A DNA stretch of 64,000 nucleotides. Origin: SAR86 cluster bacterium. GTDB lineage: Bacteria; Pseudomonadota; Gammaproteobacteria; Pseudomonadales; Pseudohongiellaceae. The translations under genes and the position numbers were made by a program. The notes under the pieces were generated by a model, which saw only the letters and a list, made by a program, of their open reading frames with translations, was not told the DNA's origin and searched no databases. Where the stretch lies: positions 158,405-222,404 of the forward strand of contig NVWI01000004.1 of assembly GCA_002746215.1 (NCBI GenBank), written 5' to 3'. Each line of letters begins with the position of its first letter. Positions within the stretch are counted from its first letter, which is position 1. Positions 37,419-45,942 of the stretch are shown piece after piece.

Positions 37419-38798
37419 TCATTCAAAATTTGGAATATCCATGATGGATGAAACAACCTGCAGCGCGTATTCACCCGTTTCCTCTTCAAAGTAAGACGTC
37501 ACTTGAATGTCAAAAGTGCCAAATTCAGCAGCTTCAATTTCCAGCAAGCTGTTAGACCCAAAGCCAAGACTGTCATCATCTGAAAAAAATTCTCCCGAAG
37601 GACTTTTTACGATTAAGTAAGTATCAAAATCCTCTGATTTCAGGCTTATCGTAAGAAGCTGCCCAGGCAAGGCAACTATTTCAAAGCTATCAATAAATTC
37701 ACCTGAGGCCTGTACTTCATCACCCGCTTCCAAACGGCCAATTTCGTCTAACGTGACTTCCCCCTCAAGCTCATCTTCAGTATTTATTTCAAGCGTATAA
37801 GCACCTGTCTCACCACTGCCAAAACTCGTTACCAGCACTTCATAAGCACCACTAAGCGTTAAATCCAACGACAGGCGTGAGCGATTTAAATCACCTTCAT
37901 AATCATCGTTTTCAAACTCTTCACCATTTGGAGCAATAACGATCAAGTAAGTATCAAAGTCTACTGAACGCAATTCAAACACAGTCCTTTGATTTGCAGA
38001 TCCTTCAAAAAAATAAGAATCAAGATACTTGCCTGTTTCGTCATCAACGTCGTCTTCAAATTCAAGCACGCCTCTTTCAATAATGCCGGCATTGTCCCAC
38101 GTGTCTCCGACATAAAATATCTCACCTGCGGCATATAAGGCACTGCAATCCGCGGCATCGTGCAAAGCATCCTCATCAAGTAAAGTAGTCGCTGAACCAC
38201 CCCCACCAAAACGCGGATCATCACATTCTCCATCGTTAGCCCAGTCACTTAAATCATCGCCAAAATCTATGTCTGCCAAGACTGGATCATCGTCGAATTC
38301 ATCCGCAGGCGGGATATTATCTTCTCCGACAAAATTCACACTGCCTTGATAGAGTAACGTTCTACAATCTGTTGCATCTTGCCGGACGTCATCGGCACTA
38401 GAAGCCACCGCTTCACCGTCAAAACGCGGATCATCACACTCCCCGTCTTCAGGCCAGCCGCCCTCATCATCACCAAACTCAATAGCTCTCAAAGCCAGAT
38501 TTGCTGACTCACTGGCAAGAAAGATCAAGCCTTGATCAAATAAACTGCTGCAGTCACTGGCATCGTTTTCGATACTCATTTCAACACCGATACCAGCAGA
38601 AATATTTCCCATACCTGGCCCACGGAAACGGGTATCAGAGCATTCGCCATTAACAGAAAATTCACTACTGTCATCGCCAAACATTAAAGCCGTTGTTTTT
38701 CCGCTATTAAAAGCAATAAAAAATATCAAAAAGCAAAGCGCCACCAGCAAAGCAATAGACAAGTGCTGATAAACACGCACGGCATTCATTTCACTCAC
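37419..38798 (-). CDS. Signal-anchored extracytoplasmic protein with three Cys-containing repeats and two PPC-like (pre-peptidase C-terminal-like) modules
   Basis: It has an N-terminal hydrophobic anchor (LSIALLVALCFLIFFIAF). Three repeats of about 50 aa read FGDD...W..DGECDDPRF.G...DA.DC..L. Two acidic modules contain DFDTYLIV..P.GE.F..DD. Confidence 0.7.
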   Translation of the reverse strand: MSEMNAVRVYQHLSIALLVALCFLIFFIAFNSGKTTALMFGDDSSEFSVNGECSDTRFRGPGMGNISAGIGVEMSIENDASDCSSLFDQGLIFLASESANLALRAIEFGDDEGGWPEDGECDDPRFDGEAVASSADDVRQDATDCRTLLYQGSVNFVGEDNIPPADEFDDDPVLADIDFGDDLSDWANDGECDDPRFGGGGSATTLLDEDALHDAADCSALYAAGEIFYVGDTWDNAGIIERGVLEFEDDVDDETGKYLDSYFFEGSANQRTVFELRSVDFDTYLIVIAPNGEEFENDDYEGDLNRSRLSLDLTLSGAYEVLVTSFGSGETGAYTLEINTEDELEGEVTLDEIGRLEAGDEVQASGEFIDSFEIVALPGQLLTISLKSEDFDTYLIVKSPSGEFFSDDDSLGFGSNSLLEIEAAEFGTFDIQVTSYFEEETGEYALQVVSSIMDIPNFE

Positions 38799-38852
38799 TT
38801 TAGTACCTCACTCATAACTGGCTCCCAGTACTCTTTATTACAGCGCTTTTTG

Positions 38853-41201
38853 TTAACCACTTAAATCACAAGTGAATTGAATCCCAGCAATTTCAATCCT
38901 GTCGCCCTGGTTCACAACAGTCCTGGAAAATGGCTGAACTTTATTACCATTCACTGAGGTGCCATGAGTAGAACTCAAGTCTTCCAACACAACAATTTGG
39001 CCCTCTTTACGCAAACGACAATGCCGTCGAGATACTCTGGAATCGTTAAGCACCACATGATTCAGCGTTGCTGAGCGGCCAATCACCAGGCCTTCTTTTG
39101 AACTCAGTAAGGCGTCATCCAATTCAATAGAGTTACTGGTTCCAGAACCAACTAGACGGCCAGCAACTCGGCTTCTGTTGACCGATACCTGTTGTGGGCT
39201 CACTCTGGCTTCTGGTTCTGCTGACGGCGCTGGTGTTGCAGCGGATGCTCGATATTCTGGCCCTGCTGTGCTGTATTCAGGGCGCAAGCGACTCAAGCCG
39301 AATAAAGCCAATAATACAAAGGCGAGACCAAGACCAATATAGAGCGCATTGTTATTTGCCGCCTCAGTTGTCGGAGTAGAAATTGGATCACCGGGAGTTG
39401 GCGTAGCAACCGGGCCAGATGAAGGGTCCGGTGGTGTTGGTGCCGGACTGGGTGTCGGCACAGGTGTTGGCACTGGTGTCGGGTCAGATTGAGGAATTGG
39501 CGTTGGCGTAATTACTGGCGGTGGTGTTGGAGCTTGTCGTCGCCATGCGCCAGAAATACCTACTGCATCCATCGCTTCATGCACCGCAATCCAGTTATCA
39601 GAATACTCGCCATAGAGAATTTCTGCAGCTAGAGCAAAAGCGTTTCTACCTGCCTCAAAATCGGCATAAGGCGTTAATAATTGAGATCCGGCTAAACCAA
39701 AAATGGCGGCAGCATTGGCAATGCCAATTCCCTGTACATTTGGTCCTGTACCTAATCGAGGATGTCGACCACCTTCAACCAAGATATAGAACGCCTGATT
39801 AATGATGGATGAATTTGAGTGCACGCCACCCTGGTCATTTTCGATTGGCACAGAATAAAATTGATCATAGTGATCAGGGTTATTATCAATCCTGTTAGGG
39901 TTTCTCATATCCCGTAGGGGGCCAACAGGACTGTCCATAGTCCATAAATTCGAATAAGTTGGTATAGACGAAGGGTTCTGTCCAAGTGCTCCCCCGGCTT
40001 CACGCCAGGCCTTAAATGAAACACCAATAGCATCCGCTATGCCTTCATCCATTGCACCAGATTCAAATTCATAGATAAGCCCACTGCCCGTGGAAATAAT
40101 GCCATGCGTCAGTTCATGCGCAATAACTTCAATATAGGGTATAGCGCTGGCCGGAATGTGAAGCTCATTCCAACCCGAATACCATGAAGCATTAAACGCG
40201 TCGCCTACACATTCACTCCAGCCATTTCCGGGATAGAAACGAATGCCAGAATACGCTTCTAGCGCAAGACCCTGATTATCAACACTGTCCATGTTTAAAA
40301 CGCTGGACATAAATTGATAGGCATCGCCTAGAATATTATAGAGCTGATCAACATGCCCCACTCCACTCGATGCGTCACCCTCATTTCGTGTAAACGTATC
40401 ATCTTGCTCCATCAAGTTTTGAATTTCTAATGACCTATCTGAGTCAATCGGATAGTCGACACCGACTGATCTGCACGCTGCTTCCATATCTCTTACTAAG
40501 CGCCTAAGTGCCCCTCGAGCCATCGGATATTTTGCAAGAAGCTCACCATTCACCGCATCAATATAAATATTTTCTGCCACTCCAGTGCTGGTAAATCCGT
40601 TAACTGACCAACTTAAGCGTAGATTCCCCGCATCATCTACGAAATAAACAGGCGCACTCGGCGTATCTAAACTTTCAGCGATATCAGCAATCACCCTGGC
40701 TTGTTCAAAAGAAATTTGAGAAAGAGTAGGCGCATCTGCAGTAAATCCCTGATGCTGACCAAGCAAACTTATTTGATTGCCTTGGGAATCAAGTATAAGC
40801 CTGGATTCGTATCCAACTATTGAGATGCCCTGGTGAGTTTGCTGCAACGAACGAATGTTGAAATTATTAACGGTACTACTCTGCTCAGACAGACTAAGCT
40901 CATCAGCAGGACCAAGATTGAGTTGCTGTTTTAATTCACTACCAAGCCAACTTACAATTGCCTCATCACTGGTTAGTCTTTTGCTATTTTCACCAAAGCC
41001 ATCAACAAACACAGCGTTAGCATCACTCGCACCTTCTTCAGTGCTTATAGGAGCCTCAGCGTCATTAATAAGAGCCTCAGCGTCATTAATAAGAGCCTCA
41101 GCGTCATTAATAAGAGCCTCAGCGTCATCAATAAGAGCCTCAGCGCCCATAAGAGCGCCCGATATTACTAACAGTAAGGAGCAAGCAAAAAATCTACACA
41201 T
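38853..41201 (-). CDS. Thermolysin-like M4 metalloprotease (FTP-PepSY propeptide plus M4 catalytic domains) joined by a Pro/Thr linker and one TM helix to a cytoplasmic FHA domain
   Basis: - N-terminus: signal peptide, then EALI(N/D)DA heptads
- Propeptide: FTP motif LQQTHQGISIVG and a PepSY-like block
- Catalytic domain: zinc site VIAHELTHGI plus GAMDEGIADAIG, and GGVHSNSSIINQAFY
- Linker: PTPPPVITPTPIPQSDPTPVPTPVPTPSPAPTPP
- TM helix: LYIGLGLAFVLLALFGL
- C-terminal FHA: VIGRS..VSRRHCRL..LSSTHGTSVNG. Confidence 0.8.
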   Translation of the reverse strand: MCRFFACSLLLVISGALMGAEALIDDAEALINDAEALINDAEALINDAEAPISTEEGASDANAVFVDGFGENSKRLTSDEAIVSWLGSELKQQLNLGPADELSLSEQSSTVNNFNIRSLQQTHQGISIVGYESRLILDSQGNQISLLGQHQGFTADAPTLSQISFEQARVIADIAESLDTPSAPVYFVDDAGNLRLSWSVNGFTSTGVAENIYIDAVNGELLAKYPMARGALRRLVRDMEAACRSVGVDYPIDSDRSLEIQNLMEQDDTFTRNEGDASSGVGHVDQLYNILGDAYQFMSSVLNMDSVDNQGLALEAYSGIRFYPGNGWSECVGDAFNASWYSGWNELHIPASAIPYIEVIAHELTHGIISTGSGLIYEFESGAMDEGIADAIGVSFKAWREAGGALGQNPSSIPTYSNLWTMDSPVGPLRDMRNPNRIDNNPDHYDQFYSVPIENDQGGVHSNSSIINQAFYILVEGGRHPRLGTGPNVQGIGIANAAAIFGLAGSQLLTPYADFEAGRNAFALAAEILYGEYSDNWIAVHEAMDAVGISGAWRRQAPTPPPVITPTPIPQSDPTPVPTPVPTPSPAPTPPDPSSGPVATPTPGDPISTPTTEAANNNALYIGLGLAFVLLALFGLSRLRPEYSTAGPEYRASAATPAPSAEPEARVSPQQVSVNRSRVAGRLVGSGTSNSIELDDALLSSKEGLVIGRSATLNHVVLNDSRVSRRHCRLRKEGQIVVLEDLSSTHGTSVNGNKVQPFSRTVVNQGDRIEIAGIQFTCDLSG
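41051..41152 (-). repeat. In-frame 21-bp tandem repeat (4.8 units) inside the M4-FHA gene
   Basis: GAGCCTCAGCGTCATTAATAA repeats perfectly at 41051, 41072 and 41093, with one mismatch at 41114 and a partial unit at 41135. It encodes EALINDA/EALIDDA heptads directly after the signal peptide. Confidence 0.9.
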
Positions 41202-41202
41202 C

Positions 41203-42951
41203 TTATGCCTCCCCTATATTTACTGGCAAACGCATCAGGACCGCCCCATCTTGAGCATCCAAAAATACACGCTCTTGAGCACCTTCAATGACTACTTCGA
41301 TATACCAGGCTAGATGGTAAGTACCTTCCACCTCGACAATAATTAACTGCGCCGCATCAGTTTCGGCTCTGGGACTAACGGCCATTGCCAGGCTCTGGTT
41401 TGCAAGATCCAGAGCTTGGTCAAAACTAAGTTCAGGTTCAACATTAATCTCAATATCATTGCCTGTTGAGCCGCTGATATTAAACACATTGCCATTGATC
41501 TCTACCGCAACAACTTCTGCACCGAAAACCGGAATACCAAGATGAGTCTGCTCCAGTCGAATTATGCGATTGCCATTAACCTCACCTTCTGTGCTGATGG
41601 ATAAGGCATCATTAGGACCAAGCCGATCATTTAATAACAGCATGTCTGTGATTTCCGCTATCAGCTCTTCATTGCTACTGACTTCTATAGCGGTTTCTAG
41701 TTGAATGGAATCTAGAACTCTGTCTTCTCGCACGGCCCCTTCACTATTTGTAGCCGGCGTAGTGTCCTGGGTAACAGGCAGCCCTTCCCCGCCTTCACCA
41801 TTTGCTTGATTGGCAGTGCTTTCTGCCTCCTCCAAGGTCCCATCTGCTCCCTGAGACTGATCATTATTCTCAGACTGGTTTGTATTCTGAGAACCAGCTT
41901 CCTCAGAGCCTCCAGACATAATCATTACCAGCCCCGCAAGAACAACAATCACACCGGCAATTAACAACCATTTTTTAGTAGACCCAGCATTAGAGCTAGC
42001 ATCAGAGCTGATAGTAGCGCTGGGTCTTGTTGCTTGAGAATCAGGAGAGCTAGCGGAATCCACACGGGACTCAGTAACCGCTTCTCGCTTTCCTGGATTG
42101 GTTATTGGATCTTCAACTTCTGGCATTGGCTGATGCTCATTGTCGTCTTGATTAGAATTTGTCATAAGAGAATCCTGATTACTTGCGTTTATTTCTACCA
42201 TTATTACCGTTGTGTTGTCATGTTTTGGTCGCTCTTTCATCTTTTCCAGCAAAGCAGCCTCAATTATTGCGTCTGCTTCTTTCGAATCTGTATCAAATAA
42301 TGCCAGCACCTCTTCGGTGCTGAAAATTTCCCAGAAGCCATCACTGCATACCGTAAACCGCTCCCCCTTTGCCAAATCCCAGTGGGTAATTTCAGGGTCA
42401 GGTAAATCCTGACCGCCAATATTAGAAATAACCGTGCCCTGATCTGGGTCTTCAGCTAACTCTTCTTCCGTAATTTTCCCTTGTAACACTTTCAGCTGTG
42501 CCAACGAATGATCAAAGGACTGTGCAATTTTTTGAGTATTCGAATATTGAGTGATGCGACTATCACCAGCATGAATGGATATGGCTTTGTCGTGTTCACC
42601 ATCTTTATAAAGGTAGAGCGCAGCAAGAGTTGACCGAGGTTCCAACCCATTAGCTTCTCCAACCTTATTAACCGCCAGGTGACTCTCAGAAACCAGCTTA
42701 TACAAGAAGCTTTCTACACCTTCTATATCAATACTTGCCCGTAGGAGCTGTTCTTGCCATAACGTATTTGCTGTCTCGATCACAGTCTGCGCAGCCAGCG
42801 CGCTGCCTTTATGGCCGCCCATACCATCGGCAACCACACAAAGCAGGCTTTGCTGCTCGGAATTTTGCAAAACGCTAAAACGATCCTGATTTTCTTCGCG
42901 ATGACCAATATGCGAAAAAGAAGTGATGCTGCACTTATTTTGGGAAGGCAT
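41203..42951 (-). CDS. PP2C-family Ser/Thr phosphatase joined by one TM helix to an extracytoplasmic FTP/PepSY (thermolysin-propeptide-like) module
   Basis: - N-terminal PP2C motifs: VVADGMGGHKGS, AGDSR, FTVCSDGFW, DNTTVIMV
- Ser/Thr-rich linker
- TM helix: WLLIAGVIVVLAGLVMIM
- Acidic low-complexity spacer
- C-terminal module: LEQTHLGIPVFGAEVV (FTP) and a PepSY-like block (YHLAWYIEV..VFLDAQDGAVL)
- Its stop is 1 nt from the ATG of the M4-FHA gene (TAAgATG). Confidence 0.8.
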   Translation of the reverse strand: MPSQNKCSITSFSHIGHREENQDRFSVLQNSEQQSLLCVVADGMGGHKGSALAAQTVIETANTLWQEQLLRASIDIEGVESFLYKLVSESHLAVNKVGEANGLEPRSTLAALYLYKDGEHDKAISIHAGDSRITQYSNTQKIAQSFDHSLAQLKVLQGKITEEELAEDPDQGTVISNIGGQDLPDPEITHWDLAKGERFTVCSDGFWEIFSTEEVLALFDTDSKEADAIIEAALLEKMKERPKHDNTTVIMVEINASNQDSLMTNSNQDDNEHQPMPEVEDPITNPGKREAVTESRVDSASSPDSQATRPSATISSDASSNAGSTKKWLLIAGVIVVLAGLVMIMSGGSEEAGSQNTNQSENNDQSQGADGTLEEAESTANQANGEGGEGLPVTQDTTPATNSEGAVREDRVLDSIQLETAIEVSSNEELIAEITDMLLLNDRLGPNDALSISTEGEVNGNRIIRLEQTHLGIPVFGAEVVAVEINGNVFNISGSTGNDIEINVEPELSFDQALDLANQSLAMAVSPRAETDAAQLIIVEVEGTYHLAWYIEVVIEGAQERVFLDAQDGAVLMRLPVNIGEA

Positions 42952-43134: not shown

Positions 43135-43416
43135 ATGCCATCTAAAACGTCATTTAAAACCTACAGCGTTGGTCGCGGCTCAGATGTCGATATTCAGATA
43201 AGTGGTCAAAGCGTATCCAGGCACCATCTTGAACTCACCGCAACGAATGACGGTAGATACTATCTGATTGATGCCAACTCTAGCAGTGGAACCCAGATTC
43301 AACGAGGTGGAAACTGGGAATCAATCAATCAAGGCTTTGTCACTGCAAACGACACCTTATTACTCGGTAAAGAAAGCATCCAAATACAACAATTGCTCTC
43401 AAAAATGAAACATTAG
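43135..43416 (+). CDS. Stand-alone FHA-domain protein (93 aa)
   Basis: YSVGRGSDVDIQI..VSRHHLEL..SSSGTQI matches the FHA core. It is the first gene of the plus-strand operon. Confidence 0.75.
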   Translation: MPSKTSFKTYSVGRGSDVDIQISGQSVSRHHLELTATNDGRYYLIDANSSSGTQIQRGGNWESINQGFVTANDTLLLGKESIQIQQLLSKMKH

Positions 43417-43515
43417 ATAGCTGCAATAATCGTAATAGCACTAGTTAGCAGCCTAGCAGCCAATTGAGCCACATCTTAACGAACAGAAAGATTTAACAAA
43501 GGTGAATAAACCAGC

Positions 43516-44331
43516 ATGAATAATCTAGAACAACAAGAAACTAATTTTCGCATAGTCGTAGCGCTGGTTGCGTCAATCATTGCTGCGGTTTTTATTGGCG
43601 TTATGTCTCTAGTATTTTCGCCTAGCGAAGGTGCCGTTGGTCAATTAGCCATGGGCGATATTTTGTTTGATCGTTCTACCGATGTCTTCCCTTACCCGCT
43701 GACTATTCAGAATATGATGTGGTTACTATTCATGGTTGGCTTCGGCGAATTGTGGATCAGGTTTGATCGAGGCACAAAAGAAATGGCGCAATTAAAAAGA
43801 GGTTTATTGCCTGAGGATGATAGCACTATGTTGCGCGCCAAGGAGTTAGTGCCTATATTCAGTTCTGTTGTAGACAACACTAAAACCCGTTACTTTTTCT
43901 TACCACGCTTGATGCACCGTATTATTTTACAGTTTCAGAATAGCCAGTCCATCAATCAATCCAATAGCTTAATGAATTCCAGTCTGGAATTAATGCAACA
44001 TGAAATAGATTTGAAATATAATATGGTGCGTTATTTAGTCTGGTTGATCCCAACTATCGGCTTTATTGGAACTGTTATTGGTATCGCACTTTCTTTATCG
44101 GAAGCGGCAAACATGCCAGACCTGGGTCAAAGCGACGCTATCAGAGTTTGGATGGGCGTGTTAACAACCAAGTTGGGTGTTGCCTTTAACACAACCTTAT
44201 TAGCATTGGTTATGTCAGCCATCCTGGTTTTTTTCATGCACCTGGCGCAAGGTCGTGAAGAAAGCGCGCTTAACAATACTGGGCAATATTGCATGGATAA
44301 TTTAATCAACAGACTTTATGAAGAAAAATAA
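43516..44331 (+). CDS. MotA/TolQ/ExbB-family proton-channel-like membrane protein (orphan)
   Basis: It has four predicted TM helices. LIPTIGFIGTVIGI and LGVAFNTTLLALVMSAILVFF resemble the conserved last two helices of ExbB/TolQ/MotA. No ExbD/TolR/MotB-like partner lies nearby. Confidence 0.55.
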   Translation: MNNLEQQETNFRIVVALVASIIAAVFIGVMSLVFSPSEGAVGQLAMGDILFDRSTDVFPYPLTIQNMMWLLFMVGFGELWIRFDRGTKEMAQLKRGLLPEDDSTMLRAKELVPIFSSVVDNTKTRYFFLPRLMHRIILQFQNSQSINQSNSLMNSSLELMQHEIDLKYNMVRYLVWLIPTIGFIGTVIGIALSLSEAANMPDLGQSDAIRVWMGVLTTKLGVAFNTTLLALVMSAILVFFMHLAQGREESALNNTGQYCMDNLINRLYEEK

Positions 44332-44357
44332 AGAGTCATCTTTCCTGGAGGTTTATT

Positions 44358-45050
44358 ATGGCAGTTAAAAGAGGACCAGACGGTATACCTATCGATGTGC
44401 CATCCGTCATGCACGAAAAGTCCAAACACGCATCACCGGCCAGTGATGCGCCTACATCATTATTTGATAACACTGGCCATGTAAACGCCGATAATGATAA
44501 GCCAACTGAATTAAATCCGAATCAGTCCAGTAGTTTATTCGGAGACGAACCGCCTACGGTTAAAGCTGATCAAAGTGGTGCTGCAACGCCAAATCAATCT
44601 GCTGCTGCAGTTGATGAGCCAGCAACGGTTATTGCTGGAGGAGCCGGTCGTCCCAGTCACGCAACAAAAGATGACTCTGGAAACCAACAAATTGATGCAA
44701 TGGCAGACCCTGTCGTTGGTTGGTTGGTTGTTGTCGATGGCCCTGGTAAAGGCAATTATTTAAAATTAGGTAACGGCCAAAACAGTATAGGCCGCGGCAA
44801 CTCTGAACGCATAAAACTGGATTTCGGTGACGATCAAATTTCACGCGCTAATCATGCAATGTTGACGTTTGATCCGCGTGGTGGAGGATTTTATATCCAA
44901 CAGGGATCAGGCACTAACCTGGCTTACCTTGATAACAGCCCGGTCCTGTCACCGACTAAACTAAGTGCGGGTAGTCGTATCACTCTCGGTGATACAACGC
45001 TGATGTTTGCCCCATTATGTGGAGAAAATTTCAGCTGGGATGAGGAATAA
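44358..45050 (+). CDS. FHA-domain protein with a long disordered N-terminal region
   Basis: About 125 aa of Ser/Thr/Pro/Ala-rich low-complexity sequence (SLFDNT / SLFGDEPPT motifs) comes first. Then SIGRG..ISRANHAML..GSGTNLAYLDN gives the FHA signature. No TM helix is present. Confidence 0.75.
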   Translation: MAVKRGPDGIPIDVPSVMHEKSKHASPASDAPTSLFDNTGHVNADNDKPTELNPNQSSSLFGDEPPTVKADQSGAATPNQSAAAVDEPATVIAGGAGRPSHATKDDSGNQQIDAMADPVVGWLVVVDGPGKGNYLKLGNGQNSIGRGNSERIKLDFGDDQISRANHAMLTFDPRGGGFYIQQGSGTNLAYLDNSPVLSPTKLSAGSRITLGDTTLMFAPLCGENFSWDEE

Positions 45051-45056
45051 CACTGC

Positions 45057-45893
45057 ATGAGTGCTGAAGAAGCGAGCACCTTGAAAAGCCTGGTTATAGA
45101 TTCTGGCTGGGGCCAGATTATTGGCACTAGAAAATCGCAGCAAGACCATGCTGTTATTGTTAATTGGCCTACTGGTTTTGCCCTTTCAATATTAGCCGAT
45201 GGTATGGGCGGTCACGCTGGTGGAGCAGAGGCTAGCCACTTAGTCGTAGATACATTTCGACAAAGTTTTGTAGACTCGACTGAAAGCAATATTCGGCAAC
45301 GCTTTCTGGAAGGCTTATCTGCCGCTAATCTTGCAGTTTATGAACACGCTAAAAACAATCCGGAACTCGAAGGTATGGGCTCTACTTTTTTAGCAGTCAC
45401 TTTCGATGGTTCTGCTATCCAGTGGATCAGCGTCGGTGATAGCCCACTTTGGTTATTCCGTGATGGAGAAATTCGCCAAATAAATGAAAATCATTCCATG
45501 GCGGCGGTGCTGGCTAAACAAGTTGAAGAAGGGCTTATCAGCAAAGAAGAAGCTGCAAGCTCTCCTGAACGCAGCCAATTACTCGATGCCGTGTTGGGCA
45601 AAGACATCAAAATGGTTGATGCCCCCGAAGAAGCGCTACAAGTACAAAACGGTGACATTATTATTTTAGCCAGTGACGGCGTTGAAACCTGCTCACTAGA
45701 AGAGCTACAGGAATTGCTCACAAGTGAAACACAGGATGCTGCCAGCAGCGCAAAACAAATCGTTGCGAAAATTTTAACAAAGGTTGAAGAGCATCAACGC
45801 AAGTCTCAGGATAACTCTACTGTTAATGTACTGCGTATCCTCAACGACCAGGAACAAATAAATACTGTACAGAATAAGAATAGCGAAGCTTAA
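45057..45893 (+). CDS. Cytoplasmic PP2C-family Ser/Thr phosphatase
   Basis: Motifs found are ILADGMGGHAGG, GSTFLAV, VGDSPLWLFRDG, IILASDGV, and DNSTVNVL. It starts 6 nt after the preceding FHA gene. Confidence 0.85.
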   Translation: MSAEEASTLKSLVIDSGWGQIIGTRKSQQDHAVIVNWPTGFALSILADGMGGHAGGAEASHLVVDTFRQSFVDSTESNIRQRFLEGLSAANLAVYEHAKNNPELEGMGSTFLAVTFDGSAIQWISVGDSPLWLFRDGEIRQINENHSMAAVLAKQVEEGLISKEEAASSPERSQLLDAVLGKDIKMVDAPEEALQVQNGDIIILASDGVETCSLEELQELLTSETQDAASSAKQIVAKILTKVEEHQRKSQDNSTVNVLRILNDQEQINTVQNKNSEA

Positions 45894-45942
45894 GTCATAA
45901 AATAAAAAACAAGTTTTGGTTCAAATTATTGGAAATATTAAG

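Follow-up and report, generated by a model that had tools for sequence, protein, structure and literature searches.

A MotA/ExbB/TolQ-family protein and its candidate vWA-borne B subunit in a kinase, PP2C and FHA gene cluster of a SAR86 cluster bacterium

A 64,000-nucleotide stretch of the genome of a SAR86 cluster bacterium (GenBank assembly GCA_002746215.1, contig NVWI01000004.1, positions 158,405 to 222,404 of the forward strand; hereafter the window) carries at 43516–44331, on the forward strand, a gene for a 271-amino acid (aa) protein that is a member of the MotA/ExbB/TolQ superfamily. We consider it likely that this protein is the A subunit of an ion-driven 5:2 motor, the B subunit of which would be the transpore helix of a 289-aa vWA protein (47874–48743, forward strand). 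The original prediction for this locus had described the 271-aa protein as an orphan channel subunit with no Asp-bearing partner in its cluster. That description did not hold, because the putative partner helix, which bears an invariant Asp (D17) and co-occurs perfectly with the motor gene, is fused to the vWA protein encoded four genes downstream. Coordinates given without a contig label refer to the window.

Results

The motor protein

Alignment of the 271-aa motor protein to the Pfam MotA_ExbB profile (PF01618) returned a match over residues 139–249 (E = 2e-10, 41 bits against a cut-off of 22.9). The same family was present in all homologues among the matches listed (at least 120), and the match to NCBIfam ExbB was faint only. 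A Kyte-Doolittle threshold recognised strong transmembrane (TM) segments at residues 12–34, 173–195 (TM3) and 219–242 (TM4), while a fourth, weaker helix at residues 64–82 paired with TM1 of TolQ in profile alignment; the cytoplasmic region is predicted to cover approximately residues 83–170. Hydropathy, profile alignment and AlphaFold2 secondary structure together give a predicted MotA-like topology with four TM helices, and the two C-terminal helices in which the family likeness had originally been seen proved to be real.

The AlphaFold2 model of the protein had a mean predicted local distance difference test score (pLDDT) of 89.2 and a predicted template modelling score (pTM) of 0.81. Its best 50 fold matches in the PDB were exclusively ExbB, TolQ, MotA, PomA and ZorA chains, all of them A subunits, with probabilities of ~ 1.0; the top TM-score (0.59/0.71) was obtained against A. 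baumannii TolQ (8vlw_B).

Residues P179, G182, F183, G185, T186, V187, G189 and T227 were invariant in 51 motor homologues, and T226 was nearly so. Judged by alignment, the invariant Pro, Gly and Thr residues are members of the family's Pro/Gly/Thr pore motifs. T186 (44071–44073) is included in the pore-helix motif LIPTIGFIGTVIGI, the GTV motif of the protein lines up with GTVWGI of TolQ in the profile alignment, and T226/T227 (44191–44196) belong to a second motif, FNTT. Motor homologues were found annotated in isolates of Alteromonas, Ketobacter and Halioxenophilus.

No match to the ExbD profile was obtained in the whole window even at E ≤ 1, and no small ExbD-like open reading frame (ORF) was present in the gaps 43417–43515 and 44332–44357 or in the rest of the cluster. 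The earlier statement that no canonical ExbD, TolR or MotB gene lies nearby was therefore borne out.

A putative partner helix on the vWA protein

The vWA protein (Pfam VWA, E = 3e-12) starts with an Asp-bearing TM helix and is our candidate for the B subunit. Its N-terminus reads MKIRSREVNIFSMSALDLFASALGAFMILTVVALPFFPNTGDS, and the near-invariant TM helix itself, REVNIFSMSALDLFASALGAF, carries Asp17 (codon 47922–47924) near the cytoplasmic end of what is a single N-terminal TM helix, as in TolR, ExbD and MotB; TolR of the same genome reads AEINVVPLIDVML for comparison. The N-terminus is predicted to lie in the cytoplasm because basic residues precede the helix (KIRSRE, with D17 about 10 residues past E7) and an acidic segment follows beyond it. 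The helix has no His and no SHLS motif.

Conservation of this N-terminal piece far exceeded that of the remainder of the protein. With residues 1–45 as query, 863 proteins were retrieved, and the best 120 of these 863 were 73–96% identical over that piece, as against ~ 34–50% overall identity for whole helix-bearing vWA proteins. Across 15 related loci of Gammaproteobacteria, Bryobacterales and Rhodothermales, the N-terminus of the vWA protein was almost unchanged while the full proteins were 39–85% identical. In an alignment of 51 vWA proteins with a mean column identity of 34% over its full length, F11, S14, L16, D17, L18, F19, A20, S21, G24, A25 and F26 were invariant in the helix part, as were P35, F37, P38, N39 and T40 past the helix.

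The AlphaFold2 model of the vWA protein consisted of a helix at residues 14–36, a low-confidence collar at 37–43 and a single 48-residue helix at 44–91, followed by a vWA fold with the metal ion-dependent adhesion site (MIDAS) residues D104, S108 and D215, whose fold neighbours were generic vWA domains. Two vWA proteins with the transpore helix (P0126 and P0127) carry the JGI label "Sec-independent protein translocase protein TatA", probably a wrong name prompted by their N-terminal helix.

Gene order and co-occurrence

Seventeen loci were fetched from reference genomes, of which 15 were intact, one (L003) ended at a contig end and one (L016) was partial. The intact loci span Gammaproteobacteria, Bryobacterales and Rhodothermales. 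In 14 of these 15 (14 of the 17 fetched), the motor gene was followed on the same strand by genes for a 230-aa FHA adaptor (FHA230), a PP2C phosphatase, a trypsin-like/TM/FHA protein and the vWA protein, in that order. All five genes are there in the remaining locus, L005, with the vWA gene situated further downstream on the opposite strand. Four further, more distant loci (43–52% identity) came from a survey of ~ 400 genomes of the same class; they run from the motor gene through FHA, (kinase) and PP2C genes to, at a greater distance, the gene for the helix-bearing protein, which lay downstream on the same strand in all four.

An FHA230-like gene stood directly after the motor gene in every intact locus (15/15 and 4/4, that is, 19/19). 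The original prediction correctly named FHA proteins of 93 and 230 aa as the neighbours of the motor protein and raised co-occurrence with both. This held for FHA230 but not for the 93-aa FHA gene, which lies upstream in gammaproteobacterial and Bryobacterales loci and is missing from that place in the Rhodothermales loci. From the kept gene order, the minimal core would therefore consist of the motor gene, the FHA adaptor, PP2C and the transpore-helix protein.

Phyletic distribution links motor and helix more closely still. The motor type (E ≤ 1e-30) was detected in 8 of the ~ 400 genomes of the class, each a different genus, and the 60-residue helix module (E ≤ 1e-6) was detected in the identical 8 genomes and in none besides. 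In five of the seven other carrier genomes, the motor and helix genes lie on the same strand, 1.4–8 kb apart; the remaining two assemblies are fragmented. The motor protein is 53–61% identical among Gammaproteobacteria, Bryobacterales (Acidobacteriota) and Rhodothermales (loci L007 and L009–L017). Because this high cross-phylum identity is combined with a patchy spread within the class, comparison of the sequences suggests that the cluster as a whole has spread by horizontal transfer.

One Rhodothermales genome (OZ253559.1) has, besides its intact copy (L017), a second, partial copy of the motor and FHA genes (L016:10819–12570), in which the FHA gene breaks off at approximately residue 129 and a transposase-like ORF of 388 aa comes next. 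We rejected this locus as an instance of a motor gene without partners, since it is a partial second copy interrupted by the transposase-like ORF.

Paralogues and ExbD genes elsewhere in the genome

The genome (3.13 Mb in 22 contigs) yielded 11 MotA_ExbB matches and five clear ExbD matches, and every ordinary ExbB/TolQ/MotA gene in it adjoins an ExbD or MotB gene. A canonical 140-aa ExbD with the classic helix NIDLTPMLDVVF is encoded at C22:99200–99622 (reverse strand), with no ExbB/TolQ neighbour; this gene adjoins a TetR-like regulator and a small MAPEG-like membrane protein.

A paralogous operon was identified at C17:353007–357191 (reverse strand), encoding a 271-aa TolQ-like motor protein (C17:356376–357191), a 420-aa protein with no Pfam match even at E ≤ 10, and two vWA proteins of 367 and 332 aa. 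The C17 motor is the nearest paralogue of the window's motor protein (32% identity), and in the 367-aa and 332-aa proteins alike, a TM helix with an Asp (FLDVMSCGFGA) is combined with a coiled coil and a vWA domain. On the other strand, 2 kb from the operon, lie genes for a trypsin-like peptidase (427 aa) and an FHA/multi-TM protein (329 aa).

A search of all 7,202 ORFs of the genome with a hidden Markov model (HMM) of the transpore helix recovered the window copy, a paralogue on contig C5 and, weakly, the two paired vWA proteins (E = 0.4 and 1.5); no ExbD was retrieved. The C5 paralogue (C5:157440–158138, reverse strand) is an unlinked 232-aa protein in which the same transpore helix (MKIRSREINIFSMSALDLFASALGAF) and a coiled coil are joined to a head that is not a vWA domain, and many 232–245-aa proteins of this class occur in metagenomes, one of them named "DUF2135" in UniRef. 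Because this class shares the helix and has another head, the transpore helix gives the impression of a portable plug, usable with various periplasmic heads.

The whole window falls within a stretch of 75 kb over which the ends of two contigs overlap at 99.98% identity (C4:148231–223323 = C17:541873–616878, reverse complement). Each window gene appeared doubled in whole-genome searches because of this assembly redundancy, and a second copy of the cluster on contig C17 was rejected as an assembly overlap, not a duplication.

The FHA adaptor and other cluster genes

FHA230 (44358–45050, forward strand) starts 26 nt past the motor gene and combines a disordered tail with a C-terminal FHA domain (Pfam FHA, E = 2e-8; NCBIfam FhaB/FipA-like match, E = 2.9e-11) that has the usual G-R, S-x-x-H and N/T residues. 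Two Thr residues of the tail, Thr67 (PPT, 44556–44558) and Thr90 (EPxT, 44625–44627), both in Pro-rich acidic contexts, were invariant in a 16-locus alignment. An N-terminal M..K..DG.P.DVP[ST] motif and a C-terminal LC..F.W motif past the FHA domain were likewise kept across the 16 loci and three phyla. Phospho-Thr is what FHA domains read, and the pattern is similar to that of OdhI/GarA and FhaB/FipA, FHA regulators whose tails are phospho-acceptors. FHA230 is probably the substrate of a kinase and is a candidate for regulating the motor at its cytoplasmic face.

Upstream of the motor gene, a small stand-alone FHA protein of 93 aa is encoded at 43135–43416 (forward strand; Pfam FHA, E = 5e-14). 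Downstream of FHA230 follows the gene for a cytoplasmic PP2C phosphatase of 278 aa that belongs to the conserved core of the cluster (45057–45893, forward strand; Pfam PP2C_2, E = 4.7e-12), which was syntenic in every intact locus. Next comes a 651-aa protein (45916–47871, forward strand) with a periplasmic trypsin-like domain (Trypsin_2, E = 1e-5, under the cut-off), a coiled coil, a TM helix at residues 486–509 and a cytoplasmic FHA domain (Pfam FHA, E = 6e-17); its gene ends 2 nt ahead of the vWA gene. On the far side of the vWA gene, 48820–50787 (forward strand) encodes a 655-aa Hanks-type Ser/Thr kinase (Pkinase, E = 2e-35) with one TM helix (residues 330–357) and a periplasmic FGE-sulfatase-like domain (E = 8e-46), which is the probable sensor kinase of the cluster. 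The gene at 50808–51803 (forward strand) specifies a secreted protein (signal-like TM segment at residues 6–28) with two copies of a Cys-containing domain, which tblastn cross-matches showed to be shared with the N-terminus of the trypsin-like/FHA protein.

An accessory, divergent operon at 37419–42951 (reverse strand) encodes a PP2C-TM-FTP propeptide protein (41203–42951), an M4 peptidase-TM-FHA protein (38853–41201) and a PPC-domain protein (37419–38798), all assigned by Pfam and all on the reverse strand; its genes were found in gammaproteobacterial and Bryobacterales loci. The M4-FHA, trypsin-FHA, PP2C-FTP and kinase proteins were considered as a TolA/TonB-like side partner and rejected, their TM helices having no His/SHLS motif.

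Discussion

Several observations count against the assignment of the vWA protein's helix as the motor's B subunit. When the first 60 residues of the vWA protein and of its paralogues were scanned against Pfam, neither ExbD (PF02472) nor MotB was matched at E ≤ 10. Comparison by hhalign of the aligned helix with the N-terminal parts of the genome's five ExbD/TolR proteins gave a non-significant probability (< 1%). Sequence statistics therefore give no grounds for claiming that the helix is homologous to ExbD. For the motor protein, Foldseek E-values were only ~ 0.01 despite the high probabilities. A profile of the motor subfamily found zero matches among PDB sequences at E ≤ 0.01, with MotA and TolQ heading the list at E = 0.2–0.6, mixed with ATP synthase c subunits; by this comparison, the subfamily is remote from solved chains in sequence. 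An unpaired canonical ExbD (C22) exists in the genome, although it is not syntenic with the motor gene, and the published motors nearest in design have two heterologous vWA genes beside the motor gene, whereas the window has one, four genes downstream. Finally, we infer the insertion of the helix into the pentamer and, with less certainty, both the binding partner of the FHA adaptor and its phosphorylation by the kinase, which are offered as a proposal.

The closest relatives of this design are the TolQ-like/"transpore-helix vWA" (TPH-vWA) motors predicted, by computation only and with an Idiomarina exemplar, in Mol Biol Evol 2025;42:msaf138 (PMC12204202, section 8, Fig. 4c-d). AlphaFold3 models in that study (PMC12204202) placed TPH-vWA dimers in TolQ-like pentamers, with the Asp within a Thr ring, for a subfamily other than the window's. 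Both types have a tolQ-like gene without tolR/exbD, tight co-occurrence, conserved pore Thr, and a vWA protein with a conserved Asp, but no SHLS/His motif, in its N-terminal TM helix, and both are known from computation alone. The published genes occur "predominantly in heterologous pairs" (PMC12204202), and the C17 operon fits this description exactly, representing the paired type in the same genome. Unlike the TPH-vWA type as published, the window type always lies within a kinase/phosphatase/FHA cluster. PMC12204202 draws no link between the family and FHA, the sole "FHA" hit in it being the name FhaC (kinase and phosphatase terms were not searched there), and full-text literature searches combining MotA/TolQ/ExbB with vWA, FHA, PP2C and kinase returned no description of the window's cluster type. 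The motor design was thus already predicted in 2025, and the single-vWA form embedded among kinase, FHA and PP2C genes appears to be an undescribed variant of the predicted kind.

With the established 5:2 motors ExbB-ExbD, TolQ-TolR and MotA-MotB (PDB 5sv0, 8vlw, 6ysl), the window shares the A-subunit fold, Pfam family and Pro/Gly/Thr motif. Its A subunit has an extra N-terminal TM helix, as MotA has, and sequence similarity to the solved chains that is not significant. The putative partner resembles ExbD, TolR and MotB in crossing the membrane once, by an N-terminal helix whose Asp is close to the cytoplasmic side, but has a coiled coil and vWA head in place of the ExbD/TolR periplasmic fold or the OmpA-like peptidoglycan-binding domain. 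The Ton and Tol systems differ further in having a TonB- or TolA-like third component bearing an SHLS helix, which the window lacks.

In the Agl-Glt machine of Myxococcus xanthus (AglR5QS + GltG), the FHA domain of GltG is predicted to contact the AglR pentamer at its cytoplasmic face (PMC11761067). That machine is similar in joining a TolQ-type motor with FHA-domain proteins and in including a vWA adhesin, CglB. It differs in that GltG is an FHA-TM-TonB-C protein at the motor's side, the AglQ/AglS subunits are ordinary and TolR-like, the vWA protein is an outer-membrane lipoprotein, and the core machine has neither kinase nor PP2C. TerY-type vWA/kinase/PP2C triads, reportedly described by Anantharaman et al. 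in 2012, share with the window a vWA, Hanks kinase, PP2C and FHA gene set in one operon, as does the vWA/Ser-Thr kinase/PP2C (plus FHA) operon DRA0331-0334 of Deinococcus (bioRxiv 10.64898/2026.01.23.701218). In both, however, the vWA protein is soluble and cytoplasmic and there is no MotA/TolQ gene, whereas for the window's vWA domain a periplasmic position is predicted, carried by a helix inserted into the motor. Zorya, in turn, resembles the window in employing a MotA/TolQ-type 5:2 motor (ZorAB) for a job other than motility or import, but the window lacks the peptidoglycan-binding partner ZorB, the long tail of ZorA, and ZorC/D.

The likeness to Zorya leads to the alternative that survives best, although we regard it as unlikely, namely that the cluster is a Zorya-type conflict or defence system in which the motor senses envelope disturbance (e.g. 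phage entry) and signals via kinase and FHA proteins to membrane-tethered proteases. Such a role would suit the patchy spread over 8 of ~ 400 genomes and 8 genera, as well as the identity of > 50% across three phyla with its suggestion of horizontal transfer, and vWA/kinase/PP2C sets have been proposed as conflict systems (PMC7159879). The motor protein also has a weak match to ZorA2 (E = 1.9e-6), but this joins residues 163–258 to positions 38–126 of a 505-position profile and reflects the generic MotA domain only. No nuclease or other classic effector is present, the cluster lies between housekeeping-looking genes with no integrase nearby, and PADLOC recognised no known defence system. This alternative concerns the biological role and is compatible with the motor model.

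Distinctly less probable is that the motor protein has no Asp partner at all and acts as a stand-alone channel or scaffold whose loop docks the flanking FHA proteins. The presence of FHA genes on both sides, the FHA gene that always follows, and the high conservation of loop segment 139–163 in the 51 homologues all speak in its favour. Yet the invariant pore Thr, Pro and Gly residues are those that serve a partner's Asp, and a perfectly co-occurring Asp helix exists. The cytoplasmic loop, moreover, contains no invariant Thr as an FHA target, Thr104 being variable and often replaced by Ala, Val or Ser, while FHA domains read phospho-Thr. Docking of an FHA protein on this loop, as originally suggested, is plausible by analogy.

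There is very little to recommend the remaining alternative, that the motor pairs with the canonical C22 ExbD and the TM helix of the vWA protein is a membrane anchor only: as the sole ExbD/MotB gene of the genome not beside a MotA_ExbB gene, C22 ExbD is the only support for the earlier suggestion of a partner encoded elsewhere, but it is neither syntenic with the motor gene nor needed for the data, it is common for surplus ExbD copies to serve ordinary ExbB systems, a helix that only anchored the protein would not have stayed invariant from phylum to phylum when the remainder has diverged to 40% identity, and the helix module accompanies the motor type in exactly the same genomes.

In the 5:2 assembly that we infer for the preferred model, with its presumed topology, a proton- or ion-driven pentamer of the 271-aa protein would surround a dimer of transpore helices of the vWA protein, and Asp17 in the pore would face a ring of Thr186 and Thr226/227. 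Ion flow would turn or pull the helix dimer, which would run on as the invariant collar, a helical stalk of ~ 7 nm and the MIDAS vWA head in the periplasm. Since the helix dimer would carry the vWA head, the motor would apply force to whatever the head grips; candidate ligands are the ectodomain of the trypsin-like protein, the protein with two Cys-containing domains and the M4/FTP pair. With other heads (e.g. that of the C5 232-aa protein), the transpore helix might act as a portable plug, giving one motor interchangeable tools.

Regulation is proposed with less certainty, including the direction of signalling. The FHA adaptor may control the cytoplasmic face of the pentamer, with the sensor kinase phosphorylating the two invariant Thr of FHA230 and PP2C clearing them. 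Reversible Thr phosphorylation might then clutch or release the motor, or recruit it to FHA-anchored ectodomain proteins through contacts between FHA domains and phospho-Thr, and the kinase and PP2C perhaps act on further cluster members too. It is conceivable, though we hold it as a tentative idea that may well prove mistaken, that this is the first 5:2 ion-driven motor engaged via reversible Ser/Thr phosphorylation, in which a receptor kinase with a periplasmic FGE-like sensor would phosphorylate the two Thr residues of FHA230, FHA docking on the cytoplasmic face of the pentamer would clutch or release rotation, and the vWA head, one of several interchangeable heads, would pull on FHA-anchored (pseudo)protease ectodomains or an envelope ligand.

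Conclusions

The 5:2 motors (Mot, Ton, Tol, Agl, Gld, Zorya) are the main bacterial route for inner-membrane energy into the envelope, and every newly understood one has so far exposed a new cellular process. In the cluster described here, the small B subunit would be replaced by a stalk-and-vWA protein that is always inherited with an FHA adaptor, PP2C and Hanks kinases. This points to a proton-driven machine under eukaryote-like phospho-signalling, for which our literature search found no paper, in keeping with the original view that coupling the proton-motive force to phospho-signalling would be unusual. The role of the cluster may be upkeep of the envelope, the control of proteases, adhesion or defence.

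An annotation trap is also corrected, as such motor genes look "orphan" when the helix that would be their partner goes unnoticed at the N-terminus of a vWA protein. With a four-gene core and culturable carriers, the system is a compact one in which a motor of this predicted kind may be approached.

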